A DNA stretch of 64,000 bases from Candidatus Anstonellaceae archaeon (GCA_038891035.1 JAWAEW010000005.1:1425-65424); one strand, 5' to 3'; positions 1-43,248 are shown, counted from the first letter of the stretch. Translations and numbers: made by a program. Notes: generated by a model not told the origin, from the sequence alone.

Positions 1-62
1 ATTGCATTTGCTGCTCCTGCAAAAAGCAAGGAAGCAAACAACAGCACAAAGAATAATCGCAT
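1..62 (-). CDS. Partial CDS (N-terminal signal peptide only, MRLFFVLLFASLLFAGAANA...) of a secreted protein running out of the window start
   Basis: Reverse-complement of 1-62 begins ATG and encodes a classic hydrophobic signal peptide. The gene continues beyond position 1. Confidence 0.3.
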   Translation of the reverse strand, partial: MRLFFVLLFASLLFAGAANA

Positions 63-159
63 ACGATCGCCTCCACGAAGAAATTCGAAAGTAAAATTTA
101 AAAACGTGCAGTTTTGAGAGGATTAAAATTTTTGGCTCAAAAATATATGCGGGGATTTT

Positions 160-22590: not shown

Positions 22591-23124
22591 ATGAGGCTTT
22601 TTGTTGCAATTAGAGTGCCAAAGGATGCATTGCCTCAAATCCAAAGAGTATCTGCCCCGCTTGAAGGCGCACTTGGAGTAAAAATGACAAAGCCTGAAAA
22701 TCTGCACATTACTCTTCGGTTCATAGGAGAAGTAGAAACCCAACAGGCAGAAAAGATAGCTGAGGCTTTAAACCGGATTGAGTTTGAGCCTTTCGAAGTT
22801 AAGCTTTTCTTAGCAGGGGCATTTCCAAACAGACATTTTCCAAGAGCAATATGGATAGGTGGAAGCAGCCAGGAAGCAAGCCAACTTGCATCAAAGATTG
22901 ACTCAGTCTTGTCCTTTCTGAAGCTTCCGCAAGAGGAATTCAGACTGCATCTGACTGTTGCGCGTGCCCCGAAAAGTGCTGCGGATATAGATGACTTCCT
23001 CAACCAGCCACCGTTTTGCATTTCCTTTCCAGTAGATGCATTCTTTTTGATAAGAAGTAGACTTACACCGGAAGGCCCAATCTACGAAGATATAAAAAAA
23101 TACAGTGCCAACAAGCCTGCGTGA
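22591..23124 (+). CDS. ligT: 2'-5' RNA ligase / 2H phosphoesterase (LigT)
   Basis: Two H-x-T/S-x motifs (HITLRF and HLTVAR). Confidence 0.8.
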   Translation: MRLFVAIRVPKDALPQIQRVSAPLEGALGVKMTKPENLHITLRFIGEVETQQAEKIAEALNRIEFEPFEVKLFLAGAFPNRHFPRAIWIGGSSQEASQLASKIDSVLSFLKLPQEEFRLHLTVARAPKSAADIDDFLNQPPFCISFPVDAFFLIRSRLTPEGPIYEDIKKYSANKPA

Positions 23125-26295: not shown

Positions 26296-27666
26296 TTGAT
26301 GAAGTGCGCTCACCCAAATAAAGCTCAAGAAGTATTTTCCAAAGTCTTGCTCAAGATAAAACCTACTCCCAAGGAAAATGAAAAGAGTTTAAAGGCGGCT
26401 TATGTATTAATTGAGAAGCTTAAGAAAGTGGCTCCTTCTTTTGTGCGAATAGAGCTTGCAGGTTCGCTTGCAAAAGGAACCAACTTGAAAGGCAGAAATG
26501 AATTTGATATTTTCATTTTATTTCCTCGACACTACTCCCATCACGAGATAGCTTTACTGGGGCTATCTTATGCTCGCAGGGCTTTTGCCGGAATGCATTT
26601 GGAGTCACGCTATGCAGAGCATCCTTATATTCAGATCCAAACGCCTTATTACAAAGCAGATGTGGTGCCTGCATACAACATAGAAAGCATAGAGCAAAAA
26701 GGCTCATCGGTAGATCGTTCAATACTTCATACTAGATATGTAAATGCTCACCTTTCTTTGCAACAAAAAGACGAAGTAAGACTGTTAAAACGGTTTATGA
26801 AAAATTTTGGCATCTATGGAGCTGAACTTCGGGTAGAGGGATTTTCAGGCTACCTTTGTGAGCTTCTGCTAATAAAATATGGTTCGCTGCTTTCATTGAT
26901 GGAGGCTGCCTCAACATGGAGCCAGCCAACAATTGTATTTGAAGGAAGCATAAGCGAGGAAGAGGCCAGGAAGAGGTTTTCTTCGCCTCTGGTCGTAGTT
27001 GACCCTGTGGACCCAAGACGAAACGTTGCAGCAGTTGTATCTCAAACGTCTCTTTCCAGATTTATATTTGAGTGTAGGAGGTTTCTAAAGGCACCGTCCG
27101 AAAGATTCTTTTTCTTGAAAAAACCTCGCAAAAGCCCATCAGGGATAGTAAAGCACATACAAGAGAGAGGAACAGAATGCCTTGCAGTGATATTCCCTGC
27201 TCCAAAAACTATTCCAGATGTCCTTTGGCCTCAGCTGAAAAAAACTGCGCATGCGATTGTTAGGAAACTTCAAGAGCAAGATTTCGGGGTCTTTGGGTTC
27301 TACTATTGGAGCGATGGCAAAGAATGTGACATACTTCTTGAGCTTGACCGCTGGAAGCTTCCGAAAATCAAAAAACTGCAAGGCCCTTCTGTACAATTTG
27401 CCTCTGATGTAGACTCATTCATAATAAAGCACTCGAAAGCGCTCAATATCCATTTGGAACATGATAAGATAGTAGCAGTGGAAAAGCGGAAGGAAACTGA
27501 AGCAAGAAGATTTCTGTTAAAGTCTATTTCAAATACTGCTGGTATGGGTATTCCAGTTTTAATGGAAAAGCAATTAAGGTTGGCAAAAGTCCTACCTGCA
27601 TCTTTGATTGCAAACAGAAAAAGGCTTGAATTTCTTTCGGACTACTTTTTTGCAAAAATAGCATGA
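26296..27666 (+). CDS. cca: CCA-adding enzyme (class I archaeal tRNA nucleotidyltransferase)
   Basis: GSLAKGTNLKGRNEFDIFILFP nucleotidyltransferase motif. Archaeal CCA architecture. Confidence 0.85.
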   Translation: MMKCAHPNKAQEVFSKVLLKIKPTPKENEKSLKAAYVLIEKLKKVAPSFVRIELAGSLAKGTNLKGRNEFDIFILFPRHYSHHEIALLGLSYARRAFAGMHLESRYAEHPYIQIQTPYYKADVVPAYNIESIEQKGSSVDRSILHTRYVNAHLSLQQKDEVRLLKRFMKNFGIYGAELRVEGFSGYLCELLLIKYGSLLSLMEAASTWSQPTIVFEGSISEEEARKRFSSPLVVVDPVDPRRNVAAVVSQTSLSRFIFECRRFLKAPSERFFFLKKPRKSPSGIVKHIQERGTECLAVIFPAPKTIPDVLWPQLKKTAHAIVRKLQEQDFGVFGFYYWSDGKECDILLELDRWKLPKIKKLQGPSVQFASDVDSFIIKHSKALNIHLEHDKIVAVEKRKETEARRFLLKSISNTAGMGIPVLMEKQLRLAKVLPASLIANRKRLEFLSDYFFAKIA

Positions 27667-32980: not shown

Positions 32981-33040
32981 TTGGACATATGCCCAAAATA
33001 TCATTTTAAGTGCCGTTGGCGTTTTATTTTATGTGAAAAC

Positions 33041-34627
33041 ATGGAGAGGTCAGATGATATTCAAGATATTATTGAAAAAAGATGGAGCGGCACCTGCAAA
33101 GTTGTTTTTGGGCAGGAAATTGGATCTATCAGGGATTACACCCGATGGCTAAAGGAAAAGATTGAGCCTATTGTAATTCGCACCTCGTCTATATCTGGAA
33201 AGAAGGTTGCATATGCGATTCCGAACTATTCAGAAAACTCAAAGTGGATTGGACTTGAAGAAATAGGAAACAGCAAATTTCCTCCTCTTTCCATAAATGA
33301 AATAAAAGACATAGAAAGTATTGTGTCTGCAATCAAAGATAGGATCTATTACACTGGCAACATAGTCCTTGGAAATTCAGGCTTTATATACGAAAGCTCT
33401 AGCATTTCAGATTCATTTTACATGTACCATACAGGAAAATTTGGAGATTCTAAATACCTCGCATTTTGCACCCTTGGAAGGCTTTGTGAAGATTGCTTTG
33501 GATGCAATGGGATTGGTGAAAGCCACTTTTGCATTAAAGCATATGAAACTTTCAGAGTCAAGCGGTCATTTGAATTTTGGATGGGACAGAATTGCTCGGA
33601 CTGCTACTATACTCATAATCTTTCTGGATGCTCTGATTGTATTTTCTCGTTCAATCTGAAAAACAAACACTTTGCAATTGGAAATTGCACATTACCAAAA
33701 GATAAATACCTCAGCATAAAAAATTCTCTTCTTGAGCAGCTGAGAGATTGGCTTATTAGGAAGAAAAGGGCACCTTCGTTGCTGGACCTTATTCCACTTT
33801 CAATCCCTCCAAAATTGCCAAGACTGGCAGCAGAAAGCAAGAATTCAAAAGTAAGCGACCTTGGACCGATAGAGGAAGGGTTTGCGAAAACTTGCCAAAT
33901 AATCTTTGGAAAAAGACTTTCAGGCAAGCTGGACGATTATGCTGATTGGCTTTCCAAGCATGTCAGAAAACACCAGAAACTTCACTCTGCAATAAGCGGG
34001 GAGCAGGTTTGCAGATGGGATTACTCAAATTATTTCATGCTGCCCCAAGAAAGAATTGTTTCCCAGGGTGAGGCTCTTGCGCTCGGTGAAATCCTTGCTC
34101 TTTCAAAAGATGAGATAGATACCATCTCTCTCAACAATGTAGGGGGAGTTTTAGGCAAAATTGCATTTTTCTCAACAGAATATGCAGAAGGGACAAACAT
34201 AAATGTAATAGATTGCCCTACTCCAACTCAGTCCTCAAACTGCTACCGCACTTCCCCTGTTGTCTATTCGAAATATTGCGCTTATTCTTTTTGGCCAAGA
34301 AGCTCACAGTATATTTTTGGCTCAAATGCAATATTTGACTCTGAGTTTTGTATCCACTGCTACCATTCAGTAAAGCTTAAGCGTTGTTTTGAGATGGATT
34401 CCTGCAACTCATGCTATAACTCATATTTCTGCCACAATTGCGAAAATGTAAGCGACAGCATGTTTTGCTTCAACGCCAAAAACTTGCGCTATGCAATAGG
34501 AAATGTAGAGGTCGGGCAGGAACAATTTCTTAAAATAAAAAATCTGCTTCTCTCAAAGATTCTTGCAGAGCTTGAGGCAAAGAAAAAATTCGATTTAAAC
34601 ATATACAATATAGGACAGAAAAAATAA
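33041..34627 (+). CDS. Cys-rich tandem-module protein, paralogue C (uncharacterised family)
   Basis: ATG at 33041 (MERSDDIQDIIEKRWSGTCKVVFGQEIGSIRDYTRWL), 60 bp after the HTH_10 gene stop. CSDCIFSFNLKNKHFAIGNCTLPKDKY. Second module ends CNSCYNSYFCHNCENVSDSMFCFNAKNLRYAIGN. Confidence 0.7.
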   Translation: MERSDDIQDIIEKRWSGTCKVVFGQEIGSIRDYTRWLKEKIEPIVIRTSSISGKKVAYAIPNYSENSKWIGLEEIGNSKFPPLSINEIKDIESIVSAIKDRIYYTGNIVLGNSGFIYESSSISDSFYMYHTGKFGDSKYLAFCTLGRLCEDCFGCNGIGESHFCIKAYETFRVKRSFEFWMGQNCSDCYYTHNLSGCSDCIFSFNLKNKHFAIGNCTLPKDKYLSIKNSLLEQLRDWLIRKKRAPSLLDLIPLSIPPKLPRLAAESKNSKVSDLGPIEEGFAKTCQIIFGKRLSGKLDDYADWLSKHVRKHQKLHSAISGEQVCRWDYSNYFMLPQERIVSQGEALALGEILALSKDEIDTISLNNVGGVLGKIAFFSTEYAEGTNINVIDCPTPTQSSNCYRTSPVVYSKYCAYSFWPRSSQYIFGSNAIFDSEFCIHCYHSVKLKRCFEMDSCNSCYNSYFCHNCENVSDSMFCFNAKNLRYAIGNVEVGQEQFLKIKNLLLSKILAELEAKKKFDLNIYNIGQKK

Positions 34628-34634
34628 TAATGAG

Positions 34635-34737
34635 CGCCTCGACCGGGAGTTTCGCTCGAAAGCTATCTGGCTTTTGTGGTTCGAACCCGGGTCGCGAGAT
34701 CGACAATCTCGAATGCTGACCACTACACCATCGAGGC
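34635..34737 (-). tRNA. tRNA-Asp (anticodon GTC) with apparent 31-nt non-canonical intron in the T-loop (after position ~59/60)
   Basis: Manual fold on the minus strand. Acceptor GCCTCGA/TCGAGGC, U8, D-arm GTGT-AGTGGTCA-GCAT. Anticodon arm CGAGA-TTGTCGA-TCTCG. T-stem CCGGG, T-loop TTCGAA, then the insert CCACAAAAGCCAGATAGCTTTCGAGCGAAAC (+ coordinates ~34649-34679), then T, CCCGG and acceptor. Discriminator G73. No encoded CCA. Confidence 0.7.
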
Positions 34738-34747
34738 GCACCCACAA

Positions 34748-34855
34748 TCCCGCCAGTGTGATTTGAACACACAACATCCTGATGACTGCCAGCCCGATTG
34801 CTGACCGCCGTGCTTTTCTACAGCCAGGCGCTCTACCAGGTTGAGCTATGGCGGG
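34748..34855 (-). tRNA. tRNA-Tyr (anticodon GTA) with ~34-nt intron at the canonical 37/38 position
   Basis: Manual fold. Acceptor CCCGCCA/TGGCGGG with C1:G72 and A73 (archaeal Tyr identity). D-arm GCTC-AACCTGGTA-GAGC. Anticodon stem CCTGG, loop CTGTAG(A), intron ~34783-34816 (+ coordinates), then TCAGG. T-arm GTGTG-TTCAAAT-CACAC. TATA-like TTTAAAAAG ~30 bp upstream (34884-34896). Confidence 0.75.
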
Positions 34856-34983
34856 ATCGTGCTTGAAAGCTCTTATTTTCAATCTTTTTAAATTTGTTTC
34901 CTTGGAGCAGATGGGCTTTGCATGCATGAGCTTGAGTCCAATTTTGTATAAAAATATACATTTTTGTATCTTTTTATAAATCA

Positions 34984-36312
34984 ATGCCATTAAAAATGCA
35001 AAGGATGAGAATGGAAGTCAAAATCATTTTGGATGAAAATCAGGTTCCAAAAGATTTCTACAATATAGTGCCTGATTTGCCTGGCAAGCTTGATCCGCCA
35101 CTTCATCCAGCCACAGGCAAGCCGGTTTCGCCATCTGATTTCGAGCCGATATTTCCCAAGGAGCTCATAAGACAGGAAATGAGCCAGGAAAGATTCATCC
35201 CAATACCGGCACAAGTGCGCGATGCGCTTTTGGCTGCTGGAAGGCCAACGCCGCTTTTGAGGGCAAAAAGGCTGGAGAGATATCTGAAAACTCCTGCAAG
35301 GATATACTTCAAGCATGAAGGGCTTAACCCTTGCGGCTCACACAAGCCCAATACGGCGATTGCACAGGCTTATTATAATATGAAGGAGGGTGTGGAGAAG
35401 CTTTGCACTGAGACTGGGGCAGGTCAGTGGGGAACTGCGCTTGCATATGCAACCATGCTTTTCGGCTTAAAATGCGAGGTATTTATGGTTAAAGTCAGTT
35501 TTTCTCAGAAGCCATACAGAAAGCACATTATGGAAGTTTATGGGGCCACAGTACACCCATCCCCAAGTACCTACACTTCTTTTGGAAGAAAGGTGTTGGA
35601 GAGCCAGCCAGACCATGCAGGAAGCTTGGGAATAGCAATTTCTGAGGCGATCGAGAGGGTAGTTTCTGACCCACAGAAAAAATCCAAATATGCCCTTGGG
35701 TCGGTGCTGAATCATGTTCTGTTGCATCAAACTGTAATAGGGCAAGAAGTTTCTTGCCAGCTGAAGCTGGTGGATGAGGATCCGGATTTTGTGATAGGAT
35801 GCATTGGGGGTGGAAGTAATTTCGGCGGGTTTGCATTCCCTCTGCTTTATGAGAAAGCAAAAGGCAAAAATAACGCAAAGTTTATTGCAGTCGAGCCTGC
35901 CTCTTGCCCATCCACCACTAAAGGAGAGTACAAATATGATTATGGGGACACCGCAGGCATGACCCCTCTTTTGAAGATGTACACACTTGGAAAAGATTAC
36001 ATGCCTCCGTCAATTCATGCAGGTGGACTGCGCTACCATGGCATGGCCCCAACTGTTTCGCTCCTTATAAACAAGGGTTTGGTTGAGGCCCGTGCTTATG
36101 AGCAGAGGGAGGTGTTTGAAGCCGCGGTCTTGTTTGCACGTACCGAAGGAATTATTGCTGCTCCAGAATCTGCACATGCGATAAAGGCTGCAATTGATGT
36201 TGCACGGGATTGCAAAAGAAAAGGTCAGAAGAAAACGATTGTATTTAATCTGTCAGGGCATGGGCTGCTGGACATGTATGGTTATCAGCAATATTTAGAA
36301 GGAAAAATGTGA
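34984..36312 (+). CDS. trpB: Tryptophan synthase beta chain, TrpB2 type
   Basis: PLP-dependent TrpB2 motifs ([35 protein letters not shown]). Likely start at ATG 35011. Confidence 0.9.
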
Positions 36313-41937: not shown

Positions 41938-43248
41938 ATGGAGGCACTTGAAACTGACTTTTCCAAGATAGGCATTATACTTTCAGGGCTTTTGAATGAC
42001 AAAAAAGTAAAAATTCGTGGGTGGGTTCATCGAAGCAGGACCTCTGGCGGTGTGTGTTTTTTGGTAATTAGAGATTCGACAGGAATTATTCAGTGTGCCA
42101 TCAAAAAGGATGTGGTTGGAGAAGACAGCTTCAAGCAGGCCACTGAAGCTTATTTGGAATCCAGCATTATGGTTGAAGGGATGGTCCGACAGGATGCGCG
42201 AGCTCCTGGAGGATATGAGATCTCTGCGACCCAGGTCAGGCTGATTGGAAAAGGAGAACCTTTTCCAATTTCAAAGGACCAATCAGTTGAGTTTTTACTG
42301 GATAAGCGGCACCTTTGGCTGAGAAGCCAAAGACTTACTGCAATAATGAAAGCAAGGCACAAAATAGTTTTTTATCTGAGGGAATTCCTTGAGAAAGAAG
42401 GATTTTGGGAACTTGCACCACCGATAATTACTGGAGCTGCTTGTGAAGGCGGAGCCACTCTTTTTGAGCTGAATTATTTTGGACAAAAGGCCTTTCTTAC
42501 CCAAAGCAGCCAGCTTTATGCAGAAGTATTCACCACTGCTCTTGAGAGAGTATATGTTTTTGCGCCATCCTTTCGGGCTGAGCCCTCTCGCACAGTAAGG
42601 CATTTGTGCGAATATTGGCATCTTGAGCCTGAGATGGCGTTTTACAACCAAAAAATGAATATGGAACTTCAGGAAAGGATGATTGAGTATGTTGCACAAA
42701 AAATGGCAGACAACCATACTGATTTACTTATTTTTTTGGGAAGGGAGCCTGAGAAGCTTAAGGCTGTGAGAGCACCATTTAAGAGAATGACATATGAGGA
42801 AGCAATTGATCTTGCTGCAAGCAAAGGGGCAAACATAAAAAGTGGGCAGGATCTGGGCGCAGATGAGGAGGCCTTACTCACAGAAGGAGAAGATAAGCCG
42901 ATTTTTGTTACAAACTTCCCTGCCAAAATAAAAGCCTTCTATATGAGGGAAGACCCACAAAATCCTGGCACTGTGCTGAATGCAGATATGCTTGCACCAG
43001 AGGGGCATGGAGAGATAATCGGCGGTTCTGAAAGAATTTGGGAGTATGATGAGCTGATGCGCAAAATAAAGGAGAATAATCTTAATCCGAGAGAGTATGA
43101 ATGGTACATTGATTTGAGGAAATATGGTCCGGTTCCGCACTCTGGATTTGGGCTTGGGATTGAGCGGTTGGTCAAGTGGCTGCTTGATTTAGACCATATA
43201 AGGGATGCTATCCCATTCCCACGAACTATAAATAGGGTGTATCCATGA
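41938..43248 (+). CDS. aspS: Aspartyl-tRNA synthetase (archaeal class IIb; Asn/Asp family)
   Basis: N-terminal OB anticodon-binding domain. Class II motifs (FRAE...R, QSSQLY, GFGLGIERLVKWLL...PFPR). Confidence 0.85.
   Translation: MEALETDFSKIGIILSGLLNDKKVKIRGWVHRSRTSGGVCFLVIRDSTGIIQCAIKKDVVGEDSFKQATEAYLESSIMVEGMVRQDARAPGGYEISATQVRLIGKGEPFPISKDQSVEFLLDKRHLWLRSQRLTAIMKARHKIVFYLREFLEKEGFWELAPPIITGAACEGGATLFELNYFGQKAFLTQSSQLYAEVFTTALERVYVFAPSFRAEPSRTVRHLCEYWHLEPEMAFYNQKMNMELQERMIEYVAQKMADNHTDLLIFLGREPEKLKAVRAPFKRMTYEEAIDLAASKGANIKSGQDLGADEEALLTEGEDKPIFVTNFPAKIKAFYMREDPQNPGTVLNADMLAPEGHGEIIGGSERIWEYDELMRKIKENNLNPREYEWYIDLRKYGPVPHSGFGLGIERLVKWLLDLDHIRDAIPFPRTINRVYP

Follow-up and report, generated by a model that had tools for sequence, protein, structure and literature searches.

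A predicted bulge-helix-bulge intron of 31 nt at T-loop site 59/60 in the tRNA-Asp(GUC) gene of a Micrarchaeota archaeon

The window (the whole 64-kb stretch of DNA that was analysed) carries a complete tRNA-Asp(GUC) gene on the minus strand at 34635..34737 (G1 = 34737, G73 = 34635), which was identified by ARAGORN on the spliced form, by covariance model R1, and by comparison with orthologues. On the minus strand, the gene reads GCCTCGA-TG-GTGT-AGTGGTCA-GCAT-T-CGAGA-TTGTCGA-TCTCG-CGAC-CCGGG-TTCGAA-[31 nt]-T-CCCGG-TCGAGGC-G. Exon 1 (tRNA positions 1-59, minus strand, 34680..34737) was delimited by a search pattern common to 33 related genes and by alignment A1, and comprises the acceptor 5' strand, the D arm, the anticodon arm with GUC, a 4-nt variable loop, the T stem 5' strand, and the T-loop segment UUCGAA. 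Exon 2 (positions 60-73, minus strand, 34635..34648) consists of U60, the T stem 3' strand CCCGG, the acceptor 3' strand UCGAGGC, and the discriminator G73. The two exons are collinear and 31 nt apart, which is not the arrangement of a split or permuted tRNA gene. The precursor body of 103 nt would be reduced to 72 nt once spliced, and CCA is not encoded.

The 31 nt between positions 59 and 60, CCACAAAAGCCAGATAGCTTTCGAGCGAAAC (minus strand, 34649..34679), are read as a bulge-helix-bulge (BHB) intron and are missing, with a clean junction, from 31 of the 33 orthologues. When CCACAAAAGCCAGATAGCTTTCGAGCGAAAC was deleted, ARAGORN folded the remaining sequence as a 72-nt tRNA-Asp(gtc) having a perfect 7-bp acceptor stem, U8, G10-U25, the G18G19 pair, U33, G37, G53-C61, the T-loop UUCGAAU, and G73, i.e. 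a complete cloverleaf tRNA with its conserved nucleotides restored. An earlier reading made from the sequence alone (the sequence-only reading) had described a tRNA-Asp(GTC) with a 31-nt insert at 59/60, and its coordinates and description were exact to the base; the clean arms, G73, U8, and perfect 7-bp acceptor that it had listed for the excised form agree with the ARAGORN fold. No second tRNA-Asp was found within the 64-kb window by ARAGORN, the Rfam tRNA model, or covariance model R1.

The intron is present as a single copy in the window, where no further copy was found at up to 3 mismatches, and a search of 262 kb of related loci for a homologue gave no significant match. The splicing signal was read on the minus strand with the 5-bp T stem CCGGG/CCCGG as the outer helix. 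In the local minimum free energy (MFE) fold, the 5' strand UUCG of the central helix H (T-loop positions 54-57, 34682..34685) pairs with the 3' strand CGAA (H', intron nucleotides 26-29, 34651..34654). Reading the sequence by the 3-4-3 geometry gives A58 A59 / C (34679..34681) as the 5' bulge, with a predicted cut after A59 (34680/34679), and A C / U60 (34648..34650) as the 3' bulge, which is also seen in the local MFE fold, with a predicted cut before U60 (34649/34648). The inner helix h' and the intron loop (34655..34678; RNAfold MFE and suboptimal folds) start with C-G, A·A, C-G, and A·C, followed by AAAGC/GCUUU closing the loop CAGAUA. For the T arm plus intron, RNAfold gave an MFE of − 12.9 kcal/mol, for a structure that contains the T stem and the inner hairpin together with the 4-bp helix and a 3' bulge of 3 nt.

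In this modelled structure, the junctions form a strict 3-4-3 hBHBh' motif: both bulges have 3 nt, the helix has 4 bp, h and h' flank it, and the cut falls after the second bulge nucleotide. With its strict 3-4-3 geometry and four Watson-Crick pairs, the motif does not belong to the relaxed class (hBH / HBh'). Only 0.9% of intron shuffles had a Watson-Crick complement of UUCG in the required register (also a support for the H' strand), and only 0.5% had in addition the start of the inner helix. The 3-4-3 rule, when applied to the adjacent tRNA-Tyr, correctly recovered the canonical 37/38 junction. A BHB-compatible structure at both junctions, which the sequence-only reading had put forward as its refuting test, is thus present and strict.

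The GCU-UUCG-AGC hairpin assigned to the insert by the same reading can be drawn, but the MFE fold prefers AAAGC/GCUUU with the loop CAGAUA. The last C of that hairpin is the first nucleotide of the 3' central-helix strand, and the hairpin competes with the inner helix. The MFE fold of the full-length precursor is not a cloverleaf (− 35.9 kcal/mol, z = − 1.8). However, with the acceptor, anticodon, and T stems imposed as constraints, the precursor adopts the BHB at − 33.8 kcal/mol, and because this is within 2.1 kcal/mol of the MFE, the non-cloverleaf fold was not counted against the gene. Energy gaps of such size between MFE and cloverleaf folds are common for tRNAs. No C or D box of a C/D-box guide RNA was seen on reading the intron sequence, and the intron most likely has no function of its own.

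The gene was missed by ARAGORN both with default settings and with the intron option; for the whole window, default ARAGORN reported a tRNA-Gln only. The Rfam tRNA model aligned only the first 58 nt of the gene and scored 22.6 bits, below the gathering score of 29, while the uninterrupted orthologue in the related locus L002 scored 62.2 bits. The expectation that standard finders might miss the gene was therefore borne out. Covariance model R1, built from eight distinct uninterrupted orthologue sequences only, recovered the window gene with a score of 56.3 bits (E = 2.3e-11), and the alignment has 32 nt where the model has a single T-loop position. Annotation based on ARAGORN or Rfam would report tRNA-Asp as missing from the genome, and completeness estimates of Micrarchaeota MAGs, as well as codon-table inferences, need intron-aware tRNA detection. 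With its intron option, ARAGORN also called a "tRNA-Asp(gtc) with a 19-nt intron" at 34747-34856. This call was rejected in favour of tRNA-Tyr(GUA); the gene shows C1-G72 and A73 and carries a 37/38 intron of 34 nt. Both tRNA genes are overlapped by an ORF of 131 aa (window 34595-34990, minus strand; L035 9989-10384), which is without a Pfam match and which the Logan annotation lists as a gene. The ORF is almost certainly spurious and a by-product of two intron-containing tRNA genes.

The tRNA-Tyr(GUA) gene (34748..34855, minus strand; Rfam tRNA 53.8 bits) has C1-G72 and A73 and lies 10 nt upstream of tRNA-Asp. Its canonical 37/38 BHB intron of 34 nt (34784..34817, minus strand) has the central helix CUGU/GCAG and the bulges AG|A and UC|A. 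Removing these 34 nt gives the anticodon loop CUGUAGA and with it the identity Tyr(GUA), and the intron is homologous to the tRNA-Tyr 37/38 intron conserved in relatives. Reading of the sequence showed an A/T-rich TTTAAAAA (34885..34892, minus strand) that precedes the 5' end of tRNA-Tyr by 30-37 nt and is a candidate archaeal TATA box, and a UUAUUAUUUUUU run (34619..34630, minus strand) that begins 5 nt past G73 of tRNA-Asp and is a candidate oligo-U terminator. The two genes are probably co-transcribed as a dicistronic transcript.

In nine of the ten relatives found in the genome scan (L002-L006 and L008-L011), the T-loop of tRNA-Tyr holds a second intron, 36-132 nt long, which the tRNA-Tyr of the window lacks. 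The register of these introns fits 58/59 best, with a GUUC/GAAC or GUUC/GGAC helix and an oversized 3' bulge. The pattern of tRNA-Tyr is the opposite of that of tRNA-Asp, in which the window has a T-loop intron and most relatives have none. In the three two-intron loci scanned (L002, L004, and L008), no tRNA-Tyr reached the Rfam gathering threshold. The Tyr-to-Asp spacer, only 10 nt in the window, is 87-228 nt long in L002, L005, L006, L009, L010, L015, L021-L025, L027, and L032-L034. The spacers of the relatives contain two to six tight hairpins with 8-11 bp stems and 3-4 nt loops, parted by short GTCC, ATCC, or GATCC linkers (RNAfold approximately − 36 to − 100 kcal/mol). Scanning two loci with such hairpin-array spacers (L002 and L004) gave no match to an Rfam family.

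Other genes of the window include an RNA 2',3'-cyclic phosphodiesterase of the LigT/ThpR type (22591-23124, plus strand; TIGR02258, 137 bits) and an archaeal class I CCA-adding enzyme (26296-27666, plus strand). Both lie within approximately 12 kb of the tRNA pair, and both enzymes act on RNA ends of the kind made in tRNA processing. The window also encodes GluRS, ProRS, AsnRS, and Pth2, as well as an A-type ATPase operon, IPP isomerase type 2, and geranylgeranyl reductase. The class II aminoacyl-tRNA synthetase at 41938-43248 (plus strand) is AspRS-like by Pfam, scores 498.7 bits against a cut-off of 414 with the NCBIfam asparagine-tRNA ligase model, and clears one of two non-discriminating AspRS models (374.6 against 353); it is most likely AsnRS. 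A 548-aa ORF (32981-34627, plus strand) ends 8 nt from the tRNA-Asp 3' end and has no Pfam or NCBIfam match. Together with HTH_10 and Hsp20 genes, it makes up a variable region adjoining the tRNA genes (31.5-34.6 kb), and for none of the three did tblastx against the equivalent interval of the closest relative, L002, give a match at E <= 1e-10.

Related loci were collected with a scan pattern that begins at the D arm and ends with A59. A search of prokaryotic genomes, with each species represented by one, gave 10 loci, and the same pattern applied to JGI metagenomes gave 23 further loci. Nine of the 10 genome-scan matches were Candidatus Micrarchaeota or Micrarchaeia MAGs. In L002, the gene order is as in the window (TrpB2-like, tRNA-Tyr, tRNA-Asp, purD), and the flanking proteins share 79% and 85% identity with their counterparts in the window. 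The best non-self match of the TrpB2-like protein was 79% identical, the named matches were from Micrarchaeota, and the homologue in Candidatus Bilamarchaeum dharawalense was 74% identical; no tRNA-Asp was found near the TrpB2-like homologues at the two loci retrieved. By these comparisons, the host is placed in the DPANN phylum Micrarchaeota, as an archaeon whose species or genus has otherwise not been sampled. The Thermoproteota/TACK setting that had been brought up for the non-canonical intron does not apply, given the genome matches, the L002 flanking proteins, and the TrpB2-like relatives. One contig, L011 (JBAZMO010000062.1), is labelled as a Patescibacteria group bacterium and carries an archaeal two-intron tRNA-Tyr together with tRNA-Asp; its length, match position, and tRNA-Asp sequence are the same as in the JGI contig L019. 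It is probably a mis-binned Micrarchaeota contig.

Among the related tRNA-Asp genes, 31 of 33 are uninterrupted, with the junction GGGTTCGAA|TCCCGG, which is the predicted spliced junction of the window gene. All 23 JGI metagenome loci are of this kind, and a metagenome scan demanding an insert of 12-42 nt at 59/60 gave no match. The nearest variant (L002, L012, and L022) has two differences from the spliced product of the window. Relative to L002, the window has C20 for U20 in the D-loop and A69 for G69, the latter turning the U4·G69 wobble into a Watson-Crick U4-A69 pair.

Inserts occur in three of the 34 tRNA-Asp genes when that of the window is included, all at 59/60 (31 nt in the window, 41 nt in L004, and 77 nt in L007). 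The L004 and L007 inserts are unrelated in sequence to the window intron and to each other; they keep the spacing of 4 + 3 nt per strand between the T stem and the inner helix that is seen in the window. In the BHB register, three of four central pairs are present in L007 and two of four in L004, and both motifs are relaxed. Local alignment of the window intron with the T-loop introns of the relatives' tRNA-Tyr and with the L004 and L007 inserts revealed no convincing similarity, the best being a 9-nt exact match with L003 (p approximately 0.014 before correction for 12 comparisons).

The sequence-only reading had regarded the intron as a lineage marker. At the level of the tRNA-Asp gene this does not hold, the insert being found in only three of the 34 genes of the clade and not in the closest relative, L002. 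The intron appears to have been gained recently and in this lineage only, at a site hit repeatedly in the clade. The exons of L004 are identical to the uninterrupted gene of L023, and since both the window and L004 have uninterrupted counterparts with near-identical or identical exons, three separate gains are provisionally favoured over many losses. Tentatively, and with more doubt than confidence, it may be put forward that introns of independent and recent origin have repeatedly targeted tRNA-Asp 59/60 in Micrarchaeota. Should the inserts be true gains and not the outcome of many parallel losses, the clade would lend itself naturally to observing how BHB introns move, and it could be used to test T-loop introns as a protection of tRNA genes against integrating elements. 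The presence/absence polymorphism shown here is between relatives whose flanking proteins are approximately 80% identical.

The following course of processing is proposed. In the precursor, U54-G57 would pair with CGAA of the intron to give a 4-bp central helix, with the T stem outside it, the intron hairpin inside it, and the bulges AA|C and AC|U left unpaired. EndA would cut after the second nucleotide of each bulge, an RtcB-type ligase would join A59 to U60, and the CCA-adding enzyme of the window (26296-27666) would add the 3' end, yielding a normal 72-nt tRNA-Asp. Neither an EndA nor an RtcB gene was found among the 64 window ORFs scanned against Pfam.

The EndA of this phylum is most likely of the three-unit ε2 type, in which an ε protomer of approximately 390 aa has the units αN-α-βC and an ARMAN-specific loop. 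A search with segments of the ARMAN-2 EndA returned at least 1415 homologues. The best 120 of these 1415 were almost all approximately 385-390 aa long (range 368-406) and 54-62% identical to the query (one 88%), and the named ones among these 120 were mostly from Micrarchaeota; a few were named Marsarchaeota or Nitrososphaerota and may be binning errors. The M. jannaschii EndA had no tblastn match in the collected related loci. A phylum-wide ε2 EndA in Micrarchaeota is thus well supported, and for the present genome we infer it from the phylum. In 2018, the ε2 type was known only from ARMAN-1/-2 and Mancarchaeum (PMC5829648). The structure of the ARMAN-2 ε2 endonuclease and its RNA complex have been solved (4FZ2, 9W2K; PMC3488258, PMC12397907).

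An endonuclease of relaxed specificity had been taken as a requirement for splicing this gene. The motif is strict, with four Watson-Crick central pairs, and because of this strict 3-4-3 form the intron by itself does not demand such an enzyme. The need for one is suggested only by the relaxed motifs of the relatives (L004, L007, and the tRNA-Tyr T-loop introns). Strict archaeal endonucleases recognise strict motifs independently of the mature domain. Strict 3-4-3 motifs are described as substrates of all archaeal EndA types (PMC3239211), and α4 enzymes are used by other DPANN lineages (PMC5829648). The intron could be real and BHB-type and yet be processed by a strict α4-type endonuclease (with or without the L3 loop) instead of ε2, and both the strict hBHBh' form of the motif and the α4 enzymes of other DPANN lineages would suit this. 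Such an enzyme is nevertheless unlikely here: the top matches to the ARMAN-2 ε2 EndA are approximately 385-390 aa long and the named ones mostly from Micrarchaeota, and relaxed motifs do occur in the clade, with two of four central pairs in L004 and the oversized 3' bulge in the tRNA-Tyr T-loop.

The locus could also be a pseudogene, i.e. a tRNA-Asp disrupted by a 31-nt insertion, with the working copy elsewhere in the genome, of which 64 kb are visible. The interrupted state is indeed the exception, with an uninterrupted gene in 31 of 33 relatives. Against this, the exons are without damaging change (only C20 and G69A relative to L002), the insert contains a register-perfect BHB expected in fewer than 1% of random inserts, and the window holds no other tRNA-Asp. 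Genomes of the phylum are also small, and the cultured ARM-1 has 46 tRNA genes (PMC8784108); in small Micrarchaeota genomes, tRNA genes would usually be single-copy. On this evidence, we regard a pseudogene as very improbable.

Mobile elements classically integrate into the 3' halves of tRNA genes. The insert might accordingly be taken for a scar or junction dating from the integration of such an element in the T-arm region (an att-site remnant), not a spliced intron, and the region downstream of tRNA-Asp (31.5-34.6 kb) is without a tblastx match in L002. This is scarcely credible for an insert of only 31 nt that forms a BHB in the correct register, at a locus with no duplication of the tRNA 3' part and no integrase nearby. 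An assembly or chimera artefact, for which the metagenome source and the occurrence of the contig in one sample only might speak, can practically be dismissed: the tRNA-Tyr/tRNA-Asp stretch recurs without any change in the independent Logan assembly of SRR27730023, which over 12.7 kb is 99.99% identical to the window, the flanking exon sequence is intact with no loss or duplication, and two other genomes have inserts at the same site.

Taken together, we are confident in reading the locus as a functional Micrarchaeota (DPANN) tRNA-Asp(GUC) gene with a 31-nt BHB intron between T-loop positions 59 and 60. Within the window, its closest comparison is the canonical 37/38 intron of tRNA-Tyr (34784-34817), which has the identical 3-4-3 geometry. 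Position 59/60 in the T arm is the structural counterpart of 37/38, with a 5-bp stem, four loop nucleotides in the helix, and a cut after the sixth loop nucleotide. The two differ in that the 59/60 intron sits in the T arm, a site not modelled by standard finders, and with the insert there the T-loop, including its T54-A58 and G18/G19 contacts, cannot form until the intron is removed.

The non-canonical introns of Thermoproteales and other TACK archaea with (αβ)2 EndA are likewise outside 37/38, with 59/60 as a recurrent site and presence/absence polymorphism, and transposition has been proposed as the route by which they were gained late (cited in PMC3239211). They belong to another phylum and presumably involve another enzyme, (αβ)2 with a Crenarchaea-specific loop as opposed to ε2.

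The nearest known system is that of ARMAN-2 (Candidatus Micrarchaeum acidiphilum), placed in the class Micrarchaeia by NCBI, in which 56% of the tRNA genes contain introns (Fujishima et al. 2011, PMC3239211). Its pre-tRNA-Cys(GCA) has a 13-nt 59/60 intron with a relaxed hBH motif, and its pre-tRNA-Pro(GGG) has strict hBHBh' introns at 53/54 and 59/60; the tRNA-Cys 59/60 substrate was cleaved in vitro by the three-unit ε2 endonuclease (PMC3239211). The ARMAN-2 59/60 introns share the phylum, the T-loop site, and the BHB-type signal with the window gene, and that of tRNA-Pro(GGG) is also a strict hBHBh'. The tRNAs concerned are Cys and Pro in ARMAN-2 and Asp in the window, and the tRNA-Cys intron, with 13 nt and a relaxed hBH motif, contrasts with the 31 nt and strict motif found here. 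ARMAN-2 is from an acid mine, whereas the host of the window is an uncultured relative of Bilamarchaeum-like Micrarchaeota with a GC content of approximately 42%. An intron at 59/60 and its cleavage by ε2 have been known in the phylum since 2011 from ARMAN-2, and what is known of the mechanism is unchanged by the present gene, which extends the range of 59/60 introns in Micrarchaeota to tRNA-Asp.
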